A stretch of 63,219 nucleotides of DNA from an uncultured Spirochaetaceae bacterium (GTDB lineage Bacteria > Spirochaetota > Spirochaetia > SZUA-6 > RPPD01), in assembly GCA_964514135.1 (NCBI GenBank), contig CAZEPL010000001.1, forward strand, positions 6,930 through 70,148, written 5' to 3'. Positions 44,242 through 55,094 of this stretch are shown one piece after another. The position numbers and the translations under genes were made by a program. The notes beneath the pieces were generated by a model. That model made no database searches. It was given only the letters and a program-made list of their open reading frames with translations, and was not told where the DNA came from. Each line of letters starts with the position of its first letter. Within the stretch, counting starts at the first letter, position 1.

Positions 44242-44847
44242 TTAAAAAGATACTCCCGCAAAAAGCACGCTCTCCAGTTTATAAAGAGGGTAGACTTCGT
44301 ACGCAGTTACAGGTACTGGTTCATTCATTATTCTATAAAGAACCTTTAAACCGGCATGGAAGCGATCAAGACGGACAGCAATTCCTCCGCCTGCCTGAAA
44401 GAAGATAGAGATCATAAGCAGTTCTCCATCATAGTAGTTGGAAGCATGTTCATTGCTGCAGCAGGGCAGCTTAACTCTGCCTGCGCAACCGATTCCGAAT
44501 TCCACGAAAGGATCGAGAAAAGAATCTTCCGTAAAATGATAGCGAAGATCCATACTGCCTATCCAGTCGAATTCCCATTCAATTTCAGAGTTATCTTCTA
44601 TTCTGTTGAATTTACCCAAATAGGTCATACCGAAACCCAAATGATTGAGTATCACTTCCCAGTATACACCAAGAAAAACTTCAGGGCTGTCCAACATATT
44701 TTCAAAGAAATTTTTACAGCGCACTTCGCCTGCCAGTTCAGCAGCAACTGCGATTCCGATACGGAATCTTTCAGTGTTAGGACTTTCAGCACCAAGACTG
44801 CCGGCAAAAAACAGCAGCAAGGTGAATAGTAATAGAACACGTGGCAT
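44242..44847 (-). CDS. Small outer-membrane beta-barrel protein
   Basis: Signal peptide ending LGA-ES; DLRYHF..FLDPFVEFGIG; terminal FAGVSF. Confidence 0.75.
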   Translation of the reverse strand: MPRVLLLFTLLLFFAGSLGAESPNTERFRIGIAVAAELAGEVRCKNFFENMLDSPEVFLGVYWEVILNHLGFGMTYLGKFNRIEDNSEIEWEFDWIGSMDLRYHFTEDSFLDPFVEFGIGCAGRVKLPCCSNEHASNYYDGELLMISIFFQAGGGIAVRLDRFHAGLKVLYRIMNEPVPVTAYEVYPLYKLESVLFAGVSF

Positions 44848-44893: not shown

Positions 44894-44922
44894 TAACACC
44901 GGAGGTGTTATAAACTGTCACC
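44894..44922 (-). promoter_or_regulatory. Putative ECF promoter, copy upstream of the OMP gene
   Basis: Minus strand GGTGAC-N16-GGTGTTA, about 47 nt before ATG 44847. Confidence 0.6.
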
Positions 44923-44941
44923 TCAAAGTTGCTGTACCGTA

Positions 44942-47080
44942 TTATTTTAGAAGTTGGACACCAAAGAAAAATTTGGGTACGATTGCGGCTTCATCATTTG
45001 AGTGGGGGACAGGAAATGAAAACAGAGAGTAATCGATATAGGATTCGTCATAATAGAGGTCCGGGTGGTAGAGCTGGAGATTAACACCTGCAAATATTCC
45101 GAAGGAATCGAAAAATGTATAACCGACTTTAAGCCTCATTTGGGGAAGCAGTGTTTCGTGAAAGACACGGTTTCCGCTATCTTCACTGGAGTGAATTGAG
45201 GTGGCTAGTACGTCGATATCTATAAAAGCAGCTTGGATGGGAATGTGTAAGCCCCAGCCGATTCCTAAAGACCATCTGTTGGAGTCGGCAATTAGATCGT
45301 AACCGGCTAAAAGTATGGTGTAAAAAAGCCTGGTACCGAATTTAAATCCCACATAGGAAAGAGAGTTGATTTCGGTCCATAGTTCAAAATTACATATGCC
45401 GTCTTTTGCATAATTAAACAGGCCGATGGCAACTCCGGAATTTTCTTCCGCAATATTAATCAGTCCGACCTGAACACCTTCGACTTTTTGGGCGATGTTA
45501 AGTAAGCCTATCTGGGCTCCGCTGATATTTCTGGCCAGGTTCAGACCTCCGCTGAGTTGTGCTCCGGAAATATCTTCACCAATATTACACAGTCCGGCAG
45601 CCTGTACTCCCGAAACTCCCATGCCCGCATAATTATAAATACCACTTACTTGTACTCCTTCCAGTTTGCCTAGGGTGTAGTTAAAAATACCGGCAGCTTG
45701 AACATAACTTGTGTTTCCATATGCCACATTGAATATGCCGCTGGCAGACGCACCGAGCGTGTCGCCCCAGACAATATTGTAAAGTCCCGATCCCTGAAAA
45801 CCGTACATGTCATAGAGCACTGTGCTCCCCAGTACGCTTAAGCTGCAACCCTGGATCATATCGTTGACACTTACACTCAGGTTTAAAGAAATTGATGTCT
45901 GAACTATGGTGTTTTCTTTTTTGCTTTGCGGAAAACCGGGAAACAGAGAAAAAGTGAAGGGTGTGTATTCATAATCATATTTGCCGTCCAAATCCAGCAT
46001 AGGATCTTTATCTCCGCGAGCATACGTAGATTCGGAATATATGAGCTTCAGGTTTTTTGCATAAAGGTTTGTTTTTTCCCCTTTAGTCAGGGTTACGTTC
46101 GTCTGATAATAAGTAGAGTTGTCATCTATTGTAATAAGGTAGCTGCCCGGCGAAAGGCCGATTTCCATCTTGTTTTGTGCAACCTTATTGAGCTCTACAA
46201 TTAAATCTCCTTTTGGATTCCTGATATAGATTCTGCCTAATATATTTTCTTCAATTATCAGACTCGCGGTTACTTCACGCAGGTCCGTGAGCACAAGGTC
46301 TCCCGTACCCGAAAGTTGTATATCATAAGAAGGGTGCTGCGGGCCGTGCTGGGTTTTTTCGGTCCGTGCCAATGTTTCTTTAAATGTGTAGTGGTAGGCT
46401 TCGTTGAGGGTTACCACCCCATCCTGCGTTACATCAGCGGCACCGCGCAAACCGGAAATTAAATAGTGGGTAAAAAAAGAGGCCTTTATCTTATCCGATT
46501 CCTGAGCAGCTTCTGTTTCTGAGCTTGAGGTTAAAAAGGCATACCCTTTCATTTCAGTTGAGGAGTCTACCATAAACGGTGCCTTTTTTACTCCGCCTTT
46601 TGCTCTTATAAATACTCCGGATGCGCAGGAATCGATAACCGCAATACGCACATCACTCGGCATTGTGGCAATAAGTGAACGCAGGCGTTTATAGGATAAT
46701 TTTTGCTCACCGAGTAACAGTCCTTCTTCATCCGAGTGACCGGAGTAATAAAAAATGAATTCTTGCCGCATGGTACTTTTTTGCTGATTTACAATTAAGC
46801 GTTTAATGGCGGTAAACGAGTGCTCAATACGGGTTACATCCGGATTAAGTAATAATATATTGTTTCCGGGCGACAGCCCGCCCATTTCCTGCATGACTCT
46901 GTTAAAAGACTCCGCATCTTTTGTGGCATACTGCAGCTTTGTTCTGTCCGGTCCGCCTTCGTTGGCACCAATAATCAGTCCATAGCGGATAATGGCGGTA
47001 TTTTTGCTGCCGGCAAAAGCACAGAAAGCTAAAATAAGGAAAATGAAGCTGAAAGCCGTCGTCTTCTTGCATAGTGCCAT
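44942..47080 (-). CDS. Exported caspase-family (peptidase C14) protease with Ig/PEGA-like domain, glycine-rich surface repeats and beta-rich C-terminus
   Basis: Signal peptide MALCKKTTAFSFIFLILAFCAFA. Catalytic FYYSGH (His 46736-46738) and IDSC (Cys 46625-46627); SFFTHYLISGLRGAAD. Repeats GxQxxGxxN (LA_2272-like). Start ATG 47080 after GGAGA. Confidence 0.9.
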   Translation of the reverse strand: MALCKKTTAFSFIFLILAFCAFAGSKNTAIIRYGLIIGANEGGPDRTKLQYATKDAESFNRVMQEMGGLSPGNNILLLNPDVTRIEHSFTAIKRLIVNQQKSTMRQEFIFYYSGHSDEEGLLLGEQKLSYKRLRSLIATMPSDVRIAVIDSCASGVFIRAKGGVKKAPFMVDSSTEMKGYAFLTSSSETEAAQESDKIKASFFTHYLISGLRGAADVTQDGVVTLNEAYHYTFKETLARTEKTQHGPQHPSYDIQLSGTGDLVLTDLREVTASLIIEENILGRIYIRNPKGDLIVELNKVAQNKMEIGLSPGSYLITIDDNSTYYQTNVTLTKGEKTNLYAKNLKLIYSESTYARGDKDPMLDLDGKYDYEYTPFTFSLFPGFPQSKKENTIVQTSISLNLSVSVNDMIQGCSLSVLGSTVLYDMYGFQGSGLYNIVWGDTLGASASGIFNVAYGNTSYVQAAGIFNYTLGKLEGVQVSGIYNYAGMGVSGVQAAGLCNIGEDISGAQLSGGLNLARNISGAQIGLLNIAQKVEGVQVGLINIAEENSGVAIGLFNYAKDGICNFELWTEINSLSYVGFKFGTRLFYTILLAGYDLIADSNRWSLGIGWGLHIPIQAAFIDIDVLATSIHSSEDSGNRVFHETLLPQMRLKVGYTFFDSFGIFAGVNLQLYHPDLYYDESYIDYSLFSFPVPHSNDEAAIVPKFFFGVQLLK

Positions 47081-47081
47081 A

Positions 47082-47909
47082 CTAGTATTCTCCTTTAATA
47101 AGAGTAAATGTGGTTTGATTAAACTTTTGAGGAAGATCAAGATATTCTTTCCTGGCCAAATCGCTGTCTTTTGCAATCTGCCCGGCTTTGGCCAGTATTT
47201 CCGTAGTATTTAGGGGAGAGTCGGATGAGATAAAAAAGAAACGCTCAAAATCGGGGGCATCGTCAAGTTCAAAAGAATCAGCCAAAAATATTTTTTTATG
47301 TTGGGTTAACATTGTATTTGCGCTTTTTTGATAAGGGAAATGGAGAGATATTTTTCCTCTTCCATCAATTGAGAATATTACTCCGTATTTGTTCTGGGCT
47401 GCGAAATACTGCACTTGGATTGTATCATGCGCAGATACGGTTGAGCCGTCTTTGAGCTTCTCTCCTTGAGCCCCGTTTTTAAGGAATATGGCAATGAGAG
47501 GTTTATCGTATTTCATATCAGTTCCCTTGATCCGGGTAGTGTCATCCGTATGATTGATAACTCCCGGCTGGGATGTTAAAAACAGCGGAATAATAAAAAC
47601 CGCAGCCAGCAGCACAACACAGGCACTGGCAAATCCGACTAAGGGAACAGGGCGTAGAAAAAAACTGCTTGTCTTCTTTTGTTTTTCAGGAATTTGCTGT
47701 GCGAGTTTGGTTTTTATTTGTTGAGCCATCTGTTTGGCAGGGTACTTAATGAGTATCTTCTTATTGGATGATTGAATCTCTTTAATGCGCTTTTGAATTA
47801 TCTTATTTTCTGCAGTAAGTGCTTGTATATATTGAGTTTCTTGTTCATCAACCTCACCCAGAAGATAACGCTCCAGTATAATGTCGGGTATAGTGTGTTG
47901 TTTACTCAT
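47082..47909 (-). CDS. Single-pass anti-sigma factor (ActD-like) with periplasmic DUF4384-like domain
   Basis: PDIILERYLLGE N-terminus; TM VGFASACVVLLAAVFIIPLF; TRIKG; YGVIFSIDGRGKISLHFP. Overlaps the sigma gene stop. Confidence 0.8.
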   Translation of the reverse strand: MSKQHTIPDIILERYLLGEVDEQETQYIQALTAENKIIQKRIKEIQSSNKKILIKYPAKQMAQQIKTKLAQQIPEKQKKTSSFFLRPVPLVGFASACVVLLAAVFIIPLFLTSQPGVINHTDDTTRIKGTDMKYDKPLIAIFLKNGAQGEKLKDGSTVSAHDTIQVQYFAAQNKYGVIFSIDGRGKISLHFPYQKSANTMLTQHKKIFLADSFELDDAPDFERFFFISSDSPLNTTEILAKAGQIAKDSDLARKEYLDLPQKFNQTTFTLIKGEY

Positions 47910-48391
47910 AGGTAGACCTCCCTTTTTTCCTTCAACTTACTTTTTAACAGCTTCAAGCGTTTTCGAACTCCGGATACGGAAAGTTTTACTTCTCTACTCA
48001 CTTGCTCCAAGGTTAAACCGTCGACGTAGTGCAATACAGCCATTACTTTGGTGGACGCTTTTTCCGATTGAAAAATGGCATTAATAAGATCTCTGTGAAA
48101 AAATCTCTGTTCCTGATCGTCGCTGGAAGCTATATGATAAAGGATATCGTCCTGCAGTATATTTGGTCTTCTGGTTTCCGATCTTATTATATTAAGGCAT
48201 GTGTTAGTCGCAATCCGGTAGAGCAGGCTGGACAATGCTTTGGAGTTCAGTTTATTCTGGTATCTTAGGACTTTTACAAAAGTATCCTGCATGGCATCTA
48301 ATGCTTTCTGTTCATTCTTAAGTAAATAGTTGCAGCGACGTAATACCATGGGCCCGTACTTTCTGTATATTGCTTCGACATCAATATCCAA
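47906..48391 (-). CDS. ECF RNA polymerase sigma factor
   Basis: Sigma2 YRKYGPMV..ALDAMQDTF..LLYRIATNTCLN; sigma4 DGLTLEQVS..SVSGVRKRL. Confidence 0.92.
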   Translation of the reverse strand: MDIDVEAIYRKYGPMVLRRCNYLLKNEQKALDAMQDTFVKVLRYQNKLNSKALSSLLYRIATNTCLNIIRSETRRPNILQDDILYHIASSDDQEQRFFHRDLINAIFQSEKASTKVMAVLHYVDGLTLEQVSREVKLSVSGVRKRLKLLKSKLKEKREVYL

Positions 48392-48419
48392 GTCATAATC
48401 CTTTCTCTCTTTAATTATA

Positions 48420-48448
48420 TAACACCTGTGCTATATAAAGATGTTACC
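48420..48448 (-). promoter_or_regulatory. Putative autoregulatory ECF promoter
   Basis: Minus strand GGTAAC-N16-GGTGTTA, about 29 nt before the sigma start, preceded by an A10 tract (48454-48463). Confidence 0.65.
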
Positions 48449-48516: not shown

Positions 48517-49455
48517 TTATGAAGAAGAGTGGTTATAAATCACCACTCTGTTTTTGCCTCTTTTTTTAGCCTCATAGAGAGCCTTGTCCGACTTGGTGAT
48601 GAGTTGTTCCGGTTTTTCCCCCGGGGAGTAAAACCCGACTCCGATACTTACGGTAACCGGGAGCCCCACACACTTCGGCATACCCGACTCGATCATGCCC
48701 CTGATTTTCTCGGCGATCCTGATGCTCATGTCCGATTTCATTTCGGGTACTACCACCGCGATCTCCTCGCCACCATAGCGGGCGACCAGATCATTTACAC
48801 GGGTATTTTCCCGGATGACAGATGCGACGGCCGCGAGCACCTGGTCCCCTTTCTGATGGCCATGTATGTCATTGACCTGCTTGAAATTGTCAATATCAAT
48901 CAGAAAAAATGAGAGTATGTAATTGTAGCGTTTAGCACGTTCGAGCTCCTTGGCAAGTTCCTCGTCCAGGTACCTCCTGTTATAAAGCCGGGTAAGCCGG
49001 TCACGGTTGGCGAGTGCGTGGAGTTTTGTTTTGGCCCTGTTGATGCTTCGTTTCAGGTTCAAGAGCTGTTTATGAGTTTTCTTGTCGCTTATGCTCTGCA
49101 GAAGCTCGGCCATCTGGTGTTCGATGAGCAGGGTGTCGGTAAGCTCACGGTCGAACTCCTCTTCGAAGACGGCCTTTCCGAATTCCTTATACACGAGATA
49201 ACATGTCCCGATGTTGATGTGATCACCATCAAAAAGAACATGCATAAGGGTTTTCTTTCCGTTAACGAAAATCCCGTTCGTGCTGTTGGTATCTTCTATT
49301 AAAAAACGGCCGTTACGAAAGATAATCCTGGCATGCTTTCGTGAAGTGGTCTGGCCGGGAATGCGGATCACAACCTGTGGATCTCTGCCGATGATATACT
49401 CGATGTCCTGCTTGAGATTGATTTTCGTATCCAGATAGTACAGGCAGTACCTCAA
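48517..49455 (-). CDS. FHA-domain diguanylate cyclase (GGDEF)
   Basis: FHA IGR..SRKHA..STNG; DRLTRLYNRR, DIDNFKQVND..GH..GD, RVND (RxxD I-site), RYGGEEI. Confidence 0.92.
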   Translation of the reverse strand: MRYCLYYLDTKINLKQDIEYIIGRDPQVVIRIPGQTTSRKHARIIFRNGRFLIEDTNSTNGIFVNGKKTLMHVLFDGDHINIGTCYLVYKEFGKAVFEEEFDRELTDTLLIEHQMAELLQSISDKKTHKQLLNLKRSINRAKTKLHALANRDRLTRLYNRRYLDEELAKELERAKRYNYILSFFLIDIDNFKQVNDIHGHQKGDQVLAAVASVIRENTRVNDLVARYGGEEIAVVVPEMKSDMSIRIAEKIRGMIESGMPKCVGLPVTVSIGVGFYSPGEKPEQLITKSDKALYEAKKRGKNRVVIYNHSSS

Positions 49456-53939: not shown

Positions 53940-55094
53940 ATGAAGACAGCCTTAAAATCACTCATCCGCCTGCTGGCTATCGCGGAAAAAGAATGGATTC
54001 AGATCAGGCGCGATTGGCGCAGTCTTGTACTTTCACTCATCCTGCCGGTGATTCTCCTCCTGTTATTCGGCTATGCCCTGAATATGGATGTAAAGAACGT
54101 CGGTGTAGCTGTATTTGATCAGGATAAATCTGTTCTTTCCCGCCGTTTGATTGACAGCCTGTTCCATAATGAGTATTTGGTCTTGTACTCTTATCTTAAT
54201 GATTATGAGGAAATAGATATTTTAATCGATCAGGATGTTATTAAAATGGCTTTGGTTTTTCCTCCCCGTTTTTCGGAATACTATTATGCCGGTAAACAGA
54301 GCGAGCTGCAATTAATTGTGGACGGCAGCGATTCAACAATCGCTACCATTGCGGCGAGTTATGTGCGCTCAATCCTATTCGATTTTAATAAACAGGAGAA
54401 GGAACGGGAGTTTAAGCGATATGGTTACGGGCAGACCGATTTTCCCATAACCATAGCAAACCGTGTGTGGTATAATCCCGAGCTCGAGAGTAAAAATTTT
54501 ATTATCCCCGGCCTTATTGTGCTCATTATGGCCATCATCTCAGCGCTTATAACTTCTTTGACCATTTCACGCGAGTGGGAGCGCGGTACCATGGAAACAT
54601 TGATTTCCACCCCTTTAAGAAAATACGAGCTCTATTTCGGCAAGCTCATACCCTATATCTTTATTGCCCTGTTTGATGTGATATGCACATTCACCCTGGC
54701 TTATTTTGTGTTCAATGTTCCCTTTAAAGGCAGCTTTGTGGAATTTTATTTAATAGCCCTTTTATTTTTAATCGGCACATCCAGTCTGGGCATGATGCTT
54801 TCGTCGGCAACACGCTCCCAGGTACTTTCGGTGCAGTTCGCCATCCTTATAACATACCTTCCCAGCTTTATTCTCTCCGGGTATGTGTTCCCCATCCTTA
54901 ATATGCCCAATCTCGTACAAACCGTCACGTACCTGATTCCCGCGAGATATCTTATGGTCTATGTAAAGAGTTTAGCTTTAAGGGGTATAGGATATACCCT
55001 GCTCTGGGGACAAATTCTCTTTTTATTGGTGTTTGCCCTTGCCGTAGGTACGGTCTGTCTTATCACACTCAGGCTGACATTGCCTGAAAAATAG
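53940..55094 (+). CDS. ABC-2 transporter permease (YbhS-like)
   Basis: KEWIQIRRD, WYNPEL, REWERGTME motifs. Confidence 0.9.
   Translation: MKTALKSLIRLLAIAEKEWIQIRRDWRSLVLSLILPVILLLLFGYALNMDVKNVGVAVFDQDKSVLSRRLIDSLFHNEYLVLYSYLNDYEEIDILIDQDVIKMALVFPPRFSEYYYAGKQSELQLIVDGSDSTIATIAASYVRSILFDFNKQEKEREFKRYGYGQTDFPITIANRVWYNPELESKNFIIPGLIVLIMAIISALITSLTISREWERGTMETLISTPLRKYELYFGKLIPYIFIALFDVICTFTLAYFVFNVPFKGSFVEFYLIALLFLIGTSSLGMMLSSATRSQVLSVQFAILITYLPSFILSGYVFPILNMPNLVQTVTYLIPARYLMVYVKSLALRGIGYTLLWGQILFLLVFALAVGTVCLITLRLTLPEK

Follow-up and report, generated by a model that had tools for sequence, protein, structure and literature searches.

The window analysed here is a stretch of 63,219 bp from contig CAZEPL010000001.1 of an uncultured Spirochaetaceae bacterium. 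On its minus strand lie the genes for a sigma factor of the extracytoplasmic function (ECF) type, a putative anti-sigma factor, a secreted caspase-domain protein and a small predicted outer-membrane barrel. Two copies of a bipartite motif, GGTRAC-N16-GGTGTTA, accompany this cluster, one in front of the sigma gene and one in front of the small barrel gene, and we concentrate on these two sites, which are predicted to be promoters read by the sigma factor of the cluster. In the direction of transcription the features are the following (loci used for comparison are numbered L).

48442..48448, minus strand: -35 element GGTAACA of the predicted operon (autoregulatory) promoter, from the sequence and from GT[AG]ACA kept upstream of sigma orthologues
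48420..48426, minus strand: -10 element GGTGTT(A) of the predicted operon promoter, from the sequence and from GGTGTT, which is near-invariant in orthologues
47906..48391, minus strand: ECF sigma factor gene, 161 residues, TTG start (Pfam Sigma70_r2, 3e-12; TIGR02937 sigma70-ECF)
47082..47909, minus strand: predicted membrane-spanning anti-sigma factor, 275 residues (gene order and overlap; directly after sigma in about 75 loci)
44942..47080, minus strand: secreted protein with a caspase domain (Peptidase_C14), LA_2272-type repeats and, at the C-terminus, an 8-strand domain resembling an outer-membrane barrel (Pfam/NCBIfam, AlphaFold, Foldseek)
44916..44922, minus strand: -35 element GGTGACA of the predicted internal promoter before the small barrel gene, kept in the close relatives L081-L084 and before homologues elsewhere
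44894..44900, minus strand: -10 element GGTGTT(A) of the predicted internal promoter, an invariant column block in the intergenic alignment; 27.3 bits with a position weight matrix (PWM)
44894..44910, minus strand: inverted repeat TAACACC-tcc-GGTGTTA, whose right arm is the -10 element; judged incidental (left arm unconserved, RNA fold z -1.8)
44242..44847, minus strand: predicted small outer-membrane beta-barrel protein, 201 residues, signal peptide, C-terminal Phe (AlphaFold, Foldseek)

With regions sigma2 and sigma4 only, and a length within the expected ~160-200 residues, the sigma factor has the make-up of an ECF (group 4) sigma-70 protein. Its TIGR02937 score is 66.8 bits at a cut-off of 42.9, while region 4 stays below the Pfam cut-off. 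The nearest solved structures are ECF SigE, SigH, RpoE and SigW (best PDB match E = 6e-7), and judged by its sequence the protein is only distantly related to the characterised ECFs. The start of the following gene overlaps the sigma stop (ATGA), and its product contains one hydrophobic span (residues ~88-110, by inspection); it is predicted to be the co-transcribed cognate anti-sigma factor. Its periplasmic domain matches DUF4384 below threshold, and the same holds for just one of eight other homologues scanned; we therefore rejected the assignment and call this domain DUF4384-like only. The gene of the caspase protein (712 residues) starts 1 nt after the anti-sigma stop and is therefore placed in the same operon.

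Both motif copies lie on the minus strand. The operon site comprises GGTAAC (48448-48443), 16 nt and GGTGTTA (48426-48420), the second site GGTGAC (44922-44917), 16 nt and GGTGTTA (44900-44894). With equal spacing, 12 of their 13 specified bases are the same, and direct reading bore out the initial annotation in coordinates, strand, spacing and identity. A motif scan, proposed there as a check, was run over both strands of the whole window and returned exactly these two sites for GGTRAC-N16-GGTGTTA, with no match in 100 dinucleotide-preserving shuffles. When two mismatches were allowed, just two more matches appeared, both poor; one of them, at 55006-55034 with two mismatches and located within the open reading frame 53940-55094, was treated as chance.

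The operon site ends 29 nt before the TTG start (48391) of the sigma gene, and the second site is found in the 94-nt gap between the stop of the caspase protein (44942) and the ATG of the small protein (44847). A -35 with AAC or GAC, a -10 with GT and a spacing of 16 nt match the description of ECF promoters, an architecture also reported for the DdvS promoters (GTAA-N16-CGT; PMC6061681), and the operon site in particular combines an AAC-core -35, a GT-core -10 and a spacer of ~16-17 nt with a position just upstream of the sigma factor's own operon. Transcription of the operon is predicted to start a few nt downstream of the -10, which would give a 5' untranslated region of ~20 nt. A housekeeping sigma-70 promoter (TTGACA-N16-18-TATAAT) was also considered and rejected, as the scan of both intergenic regions found no such site; no intrinsic terminator was found in them either. 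GTGACA resembles TTGACA, yet direct reading puts the closest TATAAT of the sigma promoter 22 nt away. As a separate observation on the leader, an out-of-frame ATG at 48394-48396 (minus strand) lies 5 nt upstream of the sigma TTG; it is kept in L081-L084 (AGGATTATGnnTTGGAT) and in the window would open an overlapping reading frame of ~33 codons.

For comparison we used a caspase-anchored set of 80 genome loci from Spirochaetota, Myxococcota, Bdellovibrionota-like genomes, Fermentibacteria, Aminicenantia and others. The gene order sigma, anti-sigma, caspase is kept in nearly all of them (~75). In the close relatives L081-L084, whose caspase proteins are 69-83% identical, the four-gene cluster is kept together with both motif copies at N16 spacing, and spacers and flanks have diverged. 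The strict regular expression GT[AG]AC-N16-NGT[GC]T matches upstream of sigma in 52 of 75 loci, and positions which it does not require are also kept, namely the A after GTRAC (0.92) and the T after GTGT (0.97). The resulting consensus is gGTrACA-N15-gGTGTT-nnA. For 58 of the 74 loci, drawn from Spirochaetota, Myxococcota and other phyla, the PWM, trained on these sigma-upstream sites themselves, finds a site at the cut-off of 17 bits or above within the 160 nt searched upstream of sigma. The sigma start codon follows the final T of the -10 at a median distance of 29 nt. At the same cut-off there are 93 matches in 843 kb and 25 in 251 kb and none in the reversed-sequence controls, and nearly every match stands directly in front of a gene, on its coding strand. 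Comparing orthologous upstream regions, as the initial annotation had suggested, thus recovers an oriented motif by regular expression as well as by PWM, and its presence upstream of orthologous sigma genes across phyla supports the proposed autoregulation.

The -35 (GTAACAC) and the -10 (GTGTTAC) are in part each other's reverse complement. Binding of a dimeric regulator is thus compatible with the sequence, and the motif could be the operator of such a regulator, recognising the inverted repeat GTAACAC...GTGTTAC, rather than a promoter. One site, in L030, reaches 14 bits on the opposite strand and scores weakly on both strands owing to this partial complementarity; all other matches score on one strand. 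The two halves, however, are not conserved symmetrically: only the left one has GGT in front of RAC, and on the right, positions 30-31 after GGTGTT show no conservation. The symmetry is also broken in many sites from Myxococcota, where the sequence is GTGACAG. Moreover, the motif nearly always has one and the same orientation towards its downstream gene, varies little in its distance from the start codon, and has the sigma/anti-sigma pair as the only regulator conserved beside it. We therefore regard an operator as very improbable and continue with the promoter reading.

In a Myxococcus chromosome (L139:4935-6882) the sigma orthologue keeps the motif and the anti-sigma gene. The third operon gene there encodes a signal-peptide protein of 202 residues which resembles the C-terminal barrel and has neither the caspase nor the repeat part; from its signal peptide and C-terminal end, both read directly, it looks like a barrel-only protein.

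Upstream of the small-protein gene the motif is present in five of five close orthologous loci. In the alignment of the preceding gap, invariant columns fall in GT.ACA and GGTGTT, the two motif elements, and otherwise in the stop codon, the ribosome-binding site and the ATG. The motif accompanies all ten homologues of the small protein found in the caspase-anchored loci, also where the gene is relocated and convergent (L003), divergent (L033 and L057) or the first of an operon (L071). A barrel-anchored set of 53 metagenome loci was collected independently, and here 43 homologues have at least 140 nt of upstream sequence. The canonical motif occurs 40-100 nt before the start in 23 of these 43, and one locus (L086) carries both motif copies with sequences identical to those of the window. 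Because the PWM came from sigma promoters, the barrel-upstream sites are an independent confirmation.

It could be argued that only the upstream copy is functional and that the intergenic copy is weak or redundant, the small barrel being made mainly by read-through from the operon. There is no terminator between the two genes, and in L083 and L084 the gap has shrunk to 54-61 nt. But these short gaps retain almost nothing besides the motif and the ribosome-binding site, and the motif stays with the barrel gene where this is detached from the operon. Both observations point to selection on the internal promoter itself, and we give the read-through explanation hardly any weight.

A different objection accepts both sites as ECF-type promoters and has one or both read by a paralogous ECF sigma factor encoded elsewhere, which would put the small barrel into another regulon. 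The examined part of the genome is 63 kb, many of the 23 motif-bearing barrel loci have no sigma cluster on the recovered contig stretch, and ECF groups with similar GTAAC-type -35 elements exist. Against this, the motif tracks the sigma family of the window across phyla and stands directly upstream of its own gene, sigma and barrel genes share it wherever they are on one contig, and lineage variants are found at both promoters of the same genome, e.g. GTGACG in L057 and L133. A paralogous sigma factor is thus improbable, and the sigma factor encoded beside the sites is the preferred candidate.

Several points weigh against assigning both sites to this sigma factor. No canonical motif match was found in 15-16 of the 74 sigma loci, and the PWM count upstream of sigma is partly circular, the matrix having been trained on the same sites. 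In seven barrel loci (L097, L098, L100, L103, L105, L107, L123) both -35 and -10 are changed to a co-varying variant, GGTGCCAC-N14-GGGGTTGCA, which lies ~40 nt upstream of the barrel gene and ends ~9 nt before the ATG; this points to an mRNA with a very short leader or none, and possibly to a sister sigma factor whose specificity has shifted. In about nine barrel homologues that are more remote (34-38% identity), a sigma-54-like TGGCA-N-TGC takes the place of the ECF motif, which suggests promoter rewiring within the family. The genome view covers 63 kb of the host, so that the regulon is partial and a paralogous ECF with the same specificity is possible. The sequencing runs matching the window region are DNA, from salt-marsh and marine-sediment metagenomes, with no RNA run among the matches, and the RNA-derived Logan contigs on the Corallococcus orthologue (L053) span the promoter and give no 5' ends. 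The partial self-complementarity of the motif belongs here as well.

The sigma-54-like elements were seen in L117-L125 as -24/-12 elements of the form TTGGCACGAATAATGCT or TTGGCATGATTTCTGCAT, e.g. at L120:1120-1160.

Taken together, we assign a probability of about 0.82 to the explanation that the ECF sigma factor encoded at 48391-47906 reads both sites as promoters and in this way drives its own operon and the small barrel gene. Promoter function, start sites, binding by this sigma factor rather than by another one and the inducing signal are all inferred from sequence; at this level autoregulation and the barrel gene as a target are well supported. In the scheme which we propose, the anti-sigma factor would hold the sigma factor at the inner membrane until an envelope signal releases it. 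Released sigma would transcribe the sigma/anti-sigma/caspase-barrel operon from the site at 48448-48420, a positive autoregulation checked by the membrane anti-sigma. Since there is no terminator in the gap, this transcription probably reads through into the small barrel gene. The site at 44922-44894 would give the small barrel gene its own sigma-dependent start and raise its expression above operon level. The periplasmic caspase-like protease would act on the signalling side, e.g. on the periplasmic domain of the anti-sigma, rather than being a mere product; that it may do so is suggested by analogy with the DdvA CHAT domain and with Craspase-Csx30-RpoE.

The initial annotation had taken the small protein for a small outer-membrane barrel and for the output of the system. 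The first part agrees with the structure prediction: the AlphaFold model (pLDDT, i.e. predicted local distance difference test, 85.5) has 8 long strands, the sequence ends in ...GVSF, and the best Foldseek matches are OmpA-TM, Ail, NspA, OprF-N, OmpW and OmpX, the top 17 all being such barrels. We therefore predict an 8-stranded outer-membrane barrel of the OmpA-TM/Ail/OmpX-like type. No Pfam or NCBIfam family matches the protein. Its family comprises ~32 clusters, of which the few with a source name are Spirochaetia, and it is confined to one spirochaete subclade. Homology to the C-terminal barrel of the caspase protein was considered and rejected, as hhalign detects no relation (probability 2.5%).

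As to the second part, the small barrel as a target is supported, the motif being kept in all close loci and following the relocated or inverted gene, but a status as sole output is not. The genes of the sigma/anti-sigma/caspase-barrel trio are translationally coupled and kept together in ~75 loci, and other envelope genes carry the motif elsewhere. These are ~390-residue paralogues of the repeat-plus-barrel part of the caspase protein (L012, L030, L056, L068), ExbB (L011, L051), TonB (L069), TonB-dependent receptors of ~790 residues (L014, L023, L052), other small signal-peptide proteins (L074, L077) and a copper-monooxygenase-like protein (L046). From the sites before ExbB, TonB, the receptors and the paralogues we conclude that the predicted regulon of this sigma family is centred on the envelope and outer membrane and varies by lineage. 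To speak of "the output" is therefore an overstatement, because the conserved operon partner is the caspase-barrel protein and the regulon is lineage-variable.

The caspase protein scores 32.9 bits with PF00656 at a cut-off of 21.4, and His115 and Cys152 are invariant in 29 homologues; a caspase fold with a His-Cys dyad, as in Peptidase C14, is predicted. In the AlphaFold model it appears to consist of four modules, a caspase domain, a beta-sandwich, an LA_2272-repeat solenoid and a C-terminal 8-strand barrel-like domain. Foldseek matches the model to MALT1 and caspases, and its C-terminal domain to NspA, OprF and OmpA barrels. The loops 154-178 and 242-259 near the active site have low confidence. 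The closest named relatives are labelled Spirochaetales in NCBI.

The inverted repeat at the internal site had been suggested as a second control site. The repeat is present, with the arms TAACACC (44910-44904) and GGTGTTA (44900-44894); its loop is tcc on the minus strand, and the gga given originally is the plus-strand reading. A role in control was rejected because the left arm is not kept even in loci with 82-83% identity (it is lost in L081, L083 and L084) and the RNA fold is unremarkable (z-score -1.8).

Directly upstream of the sigma promoter lies a gene for an FHA-GGDEF diguanylate cyclase (48517-49455, minus strand). It is also found in L081, whereas other genes replace it in L082-L084, and for this reason it is probably not part of the sigma system. 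A defence-system reading of the locus was rejected, as no PADLOC match rises above noise.

Taken by itself the finding is standard ECF autoregulation plus one adjacent target. What it adds is the promoter consensus gGTrACA-N15-gGTGTT together with a first outline of the regulon of an ECF family that is widespread and apparently unstudied. In Spirochaetota, Myxococcota and other phyla, nearly all loci pair this sigma family with an outer-membrane protein that has an extracytoplasmic caspase domain. A text search of the literature, aimed at the motif and at a connection between ECF sigma factors and caspases, gave no relevant result, and neither caspase nor DUF4384 occurs in the main text of the ECF re-classification paper. 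With the consensus, the system can be tested directly in carriers that are cultivable, Myxococcus, Corallococcus, Breznakiella and Salinispira among them, and the sigma/promoter pair may serve as an orthogonal pair.

Among known systems, FecI/FecR cell-surface signalling does not fit: the anti-sigma has no FecR match in the Pfam scan, and the motif precedes TonB-dependent receptors in a few distant loci only. In the type III-E Craspase system (Csx29-Csx30-RpoE; bioRxiv 10.1101/2022.08.17.504292) a caspase-like protease, a sigma-binding inhibitor and an ECF sigma factor are likewise encoded together; cleavage of the inhibitor is the switch, and the C-terminal domain of Csx30 is DUF4384 in some variants. 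Craspase is, however, cytoplasmic and RNA-guided, whereas the protease of the window and the DUF4384-like domain, with its match below threshold, are predicted to be extracytoplasmic. The complete module (Cas7-11/gRAMP, TPR-CHAT Csx29, Csx30, RpoE) is absent here, with no cas gene in the neighbourhood and no meaningful PADLOC match. One may speculate that the trio is an uncharacterised cross-phylum envelope signalling module and a periplasmic counterpart of Craspase-Csx30-RpoE, in which an outer-membrane-anchored caspase-like sensor would cleave the DUF4384-like domain of the anti-sigma, and small barrels, barrel paralogues and TonB-system genes would be lineage-specific outputs; as a whole we consider this tentative and rather unlikely.

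SigX of Pseudomonas aeruginosa (PMC3832394) is similarly an ECF sigma factor involved in transcribing an OmpA-type barrel gene, oprF, as a direct regulon member. In contrast to the small barrel, OprF is a major porin with a peptidoglycan-binding domain, and SigX has neither an adjacent classical anti-sigma nor a caspase-domain protein. The autoregulated ECF/anti-sigma operons of Bacillus subtilis (SigW/SigX) and Escherichia coli (RpoE-RseA) share with the arrangement predicted for the window a two-domain sigma factor co-transcribed with a single-pass anti-sigma, an own promoter with AAC-type -35, GT-type -10 and ~16-nt spacer, and extra promoter copies that mark an envelope-protein regulon. 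They differ in the -10, which here is GGTGTT rather than CGTxx, and in the third operon gene, which here encodes a caspase-domain outer-membrane protein. In DdvS-DdvA of Myxococcus xanthus (PMC6061681) an autoregulated ECF/anti-sigma pair is also linked to an extracytoplasmic caspase-fold (CHAT) protease module, and its promoters were found by motif search and confirmed by 5'-RACE (rapid amplification of cDNA ends). DdvA, however, carries its CHAT domain in fusion with the anti-sigma, and CRISPR-Cas/CBASS genes are the targets there; the window instead encodes the protease as a Peptidase_C14 protein of its own that has an outer-membrane barrel, and envelope proteins are the predicted targets.

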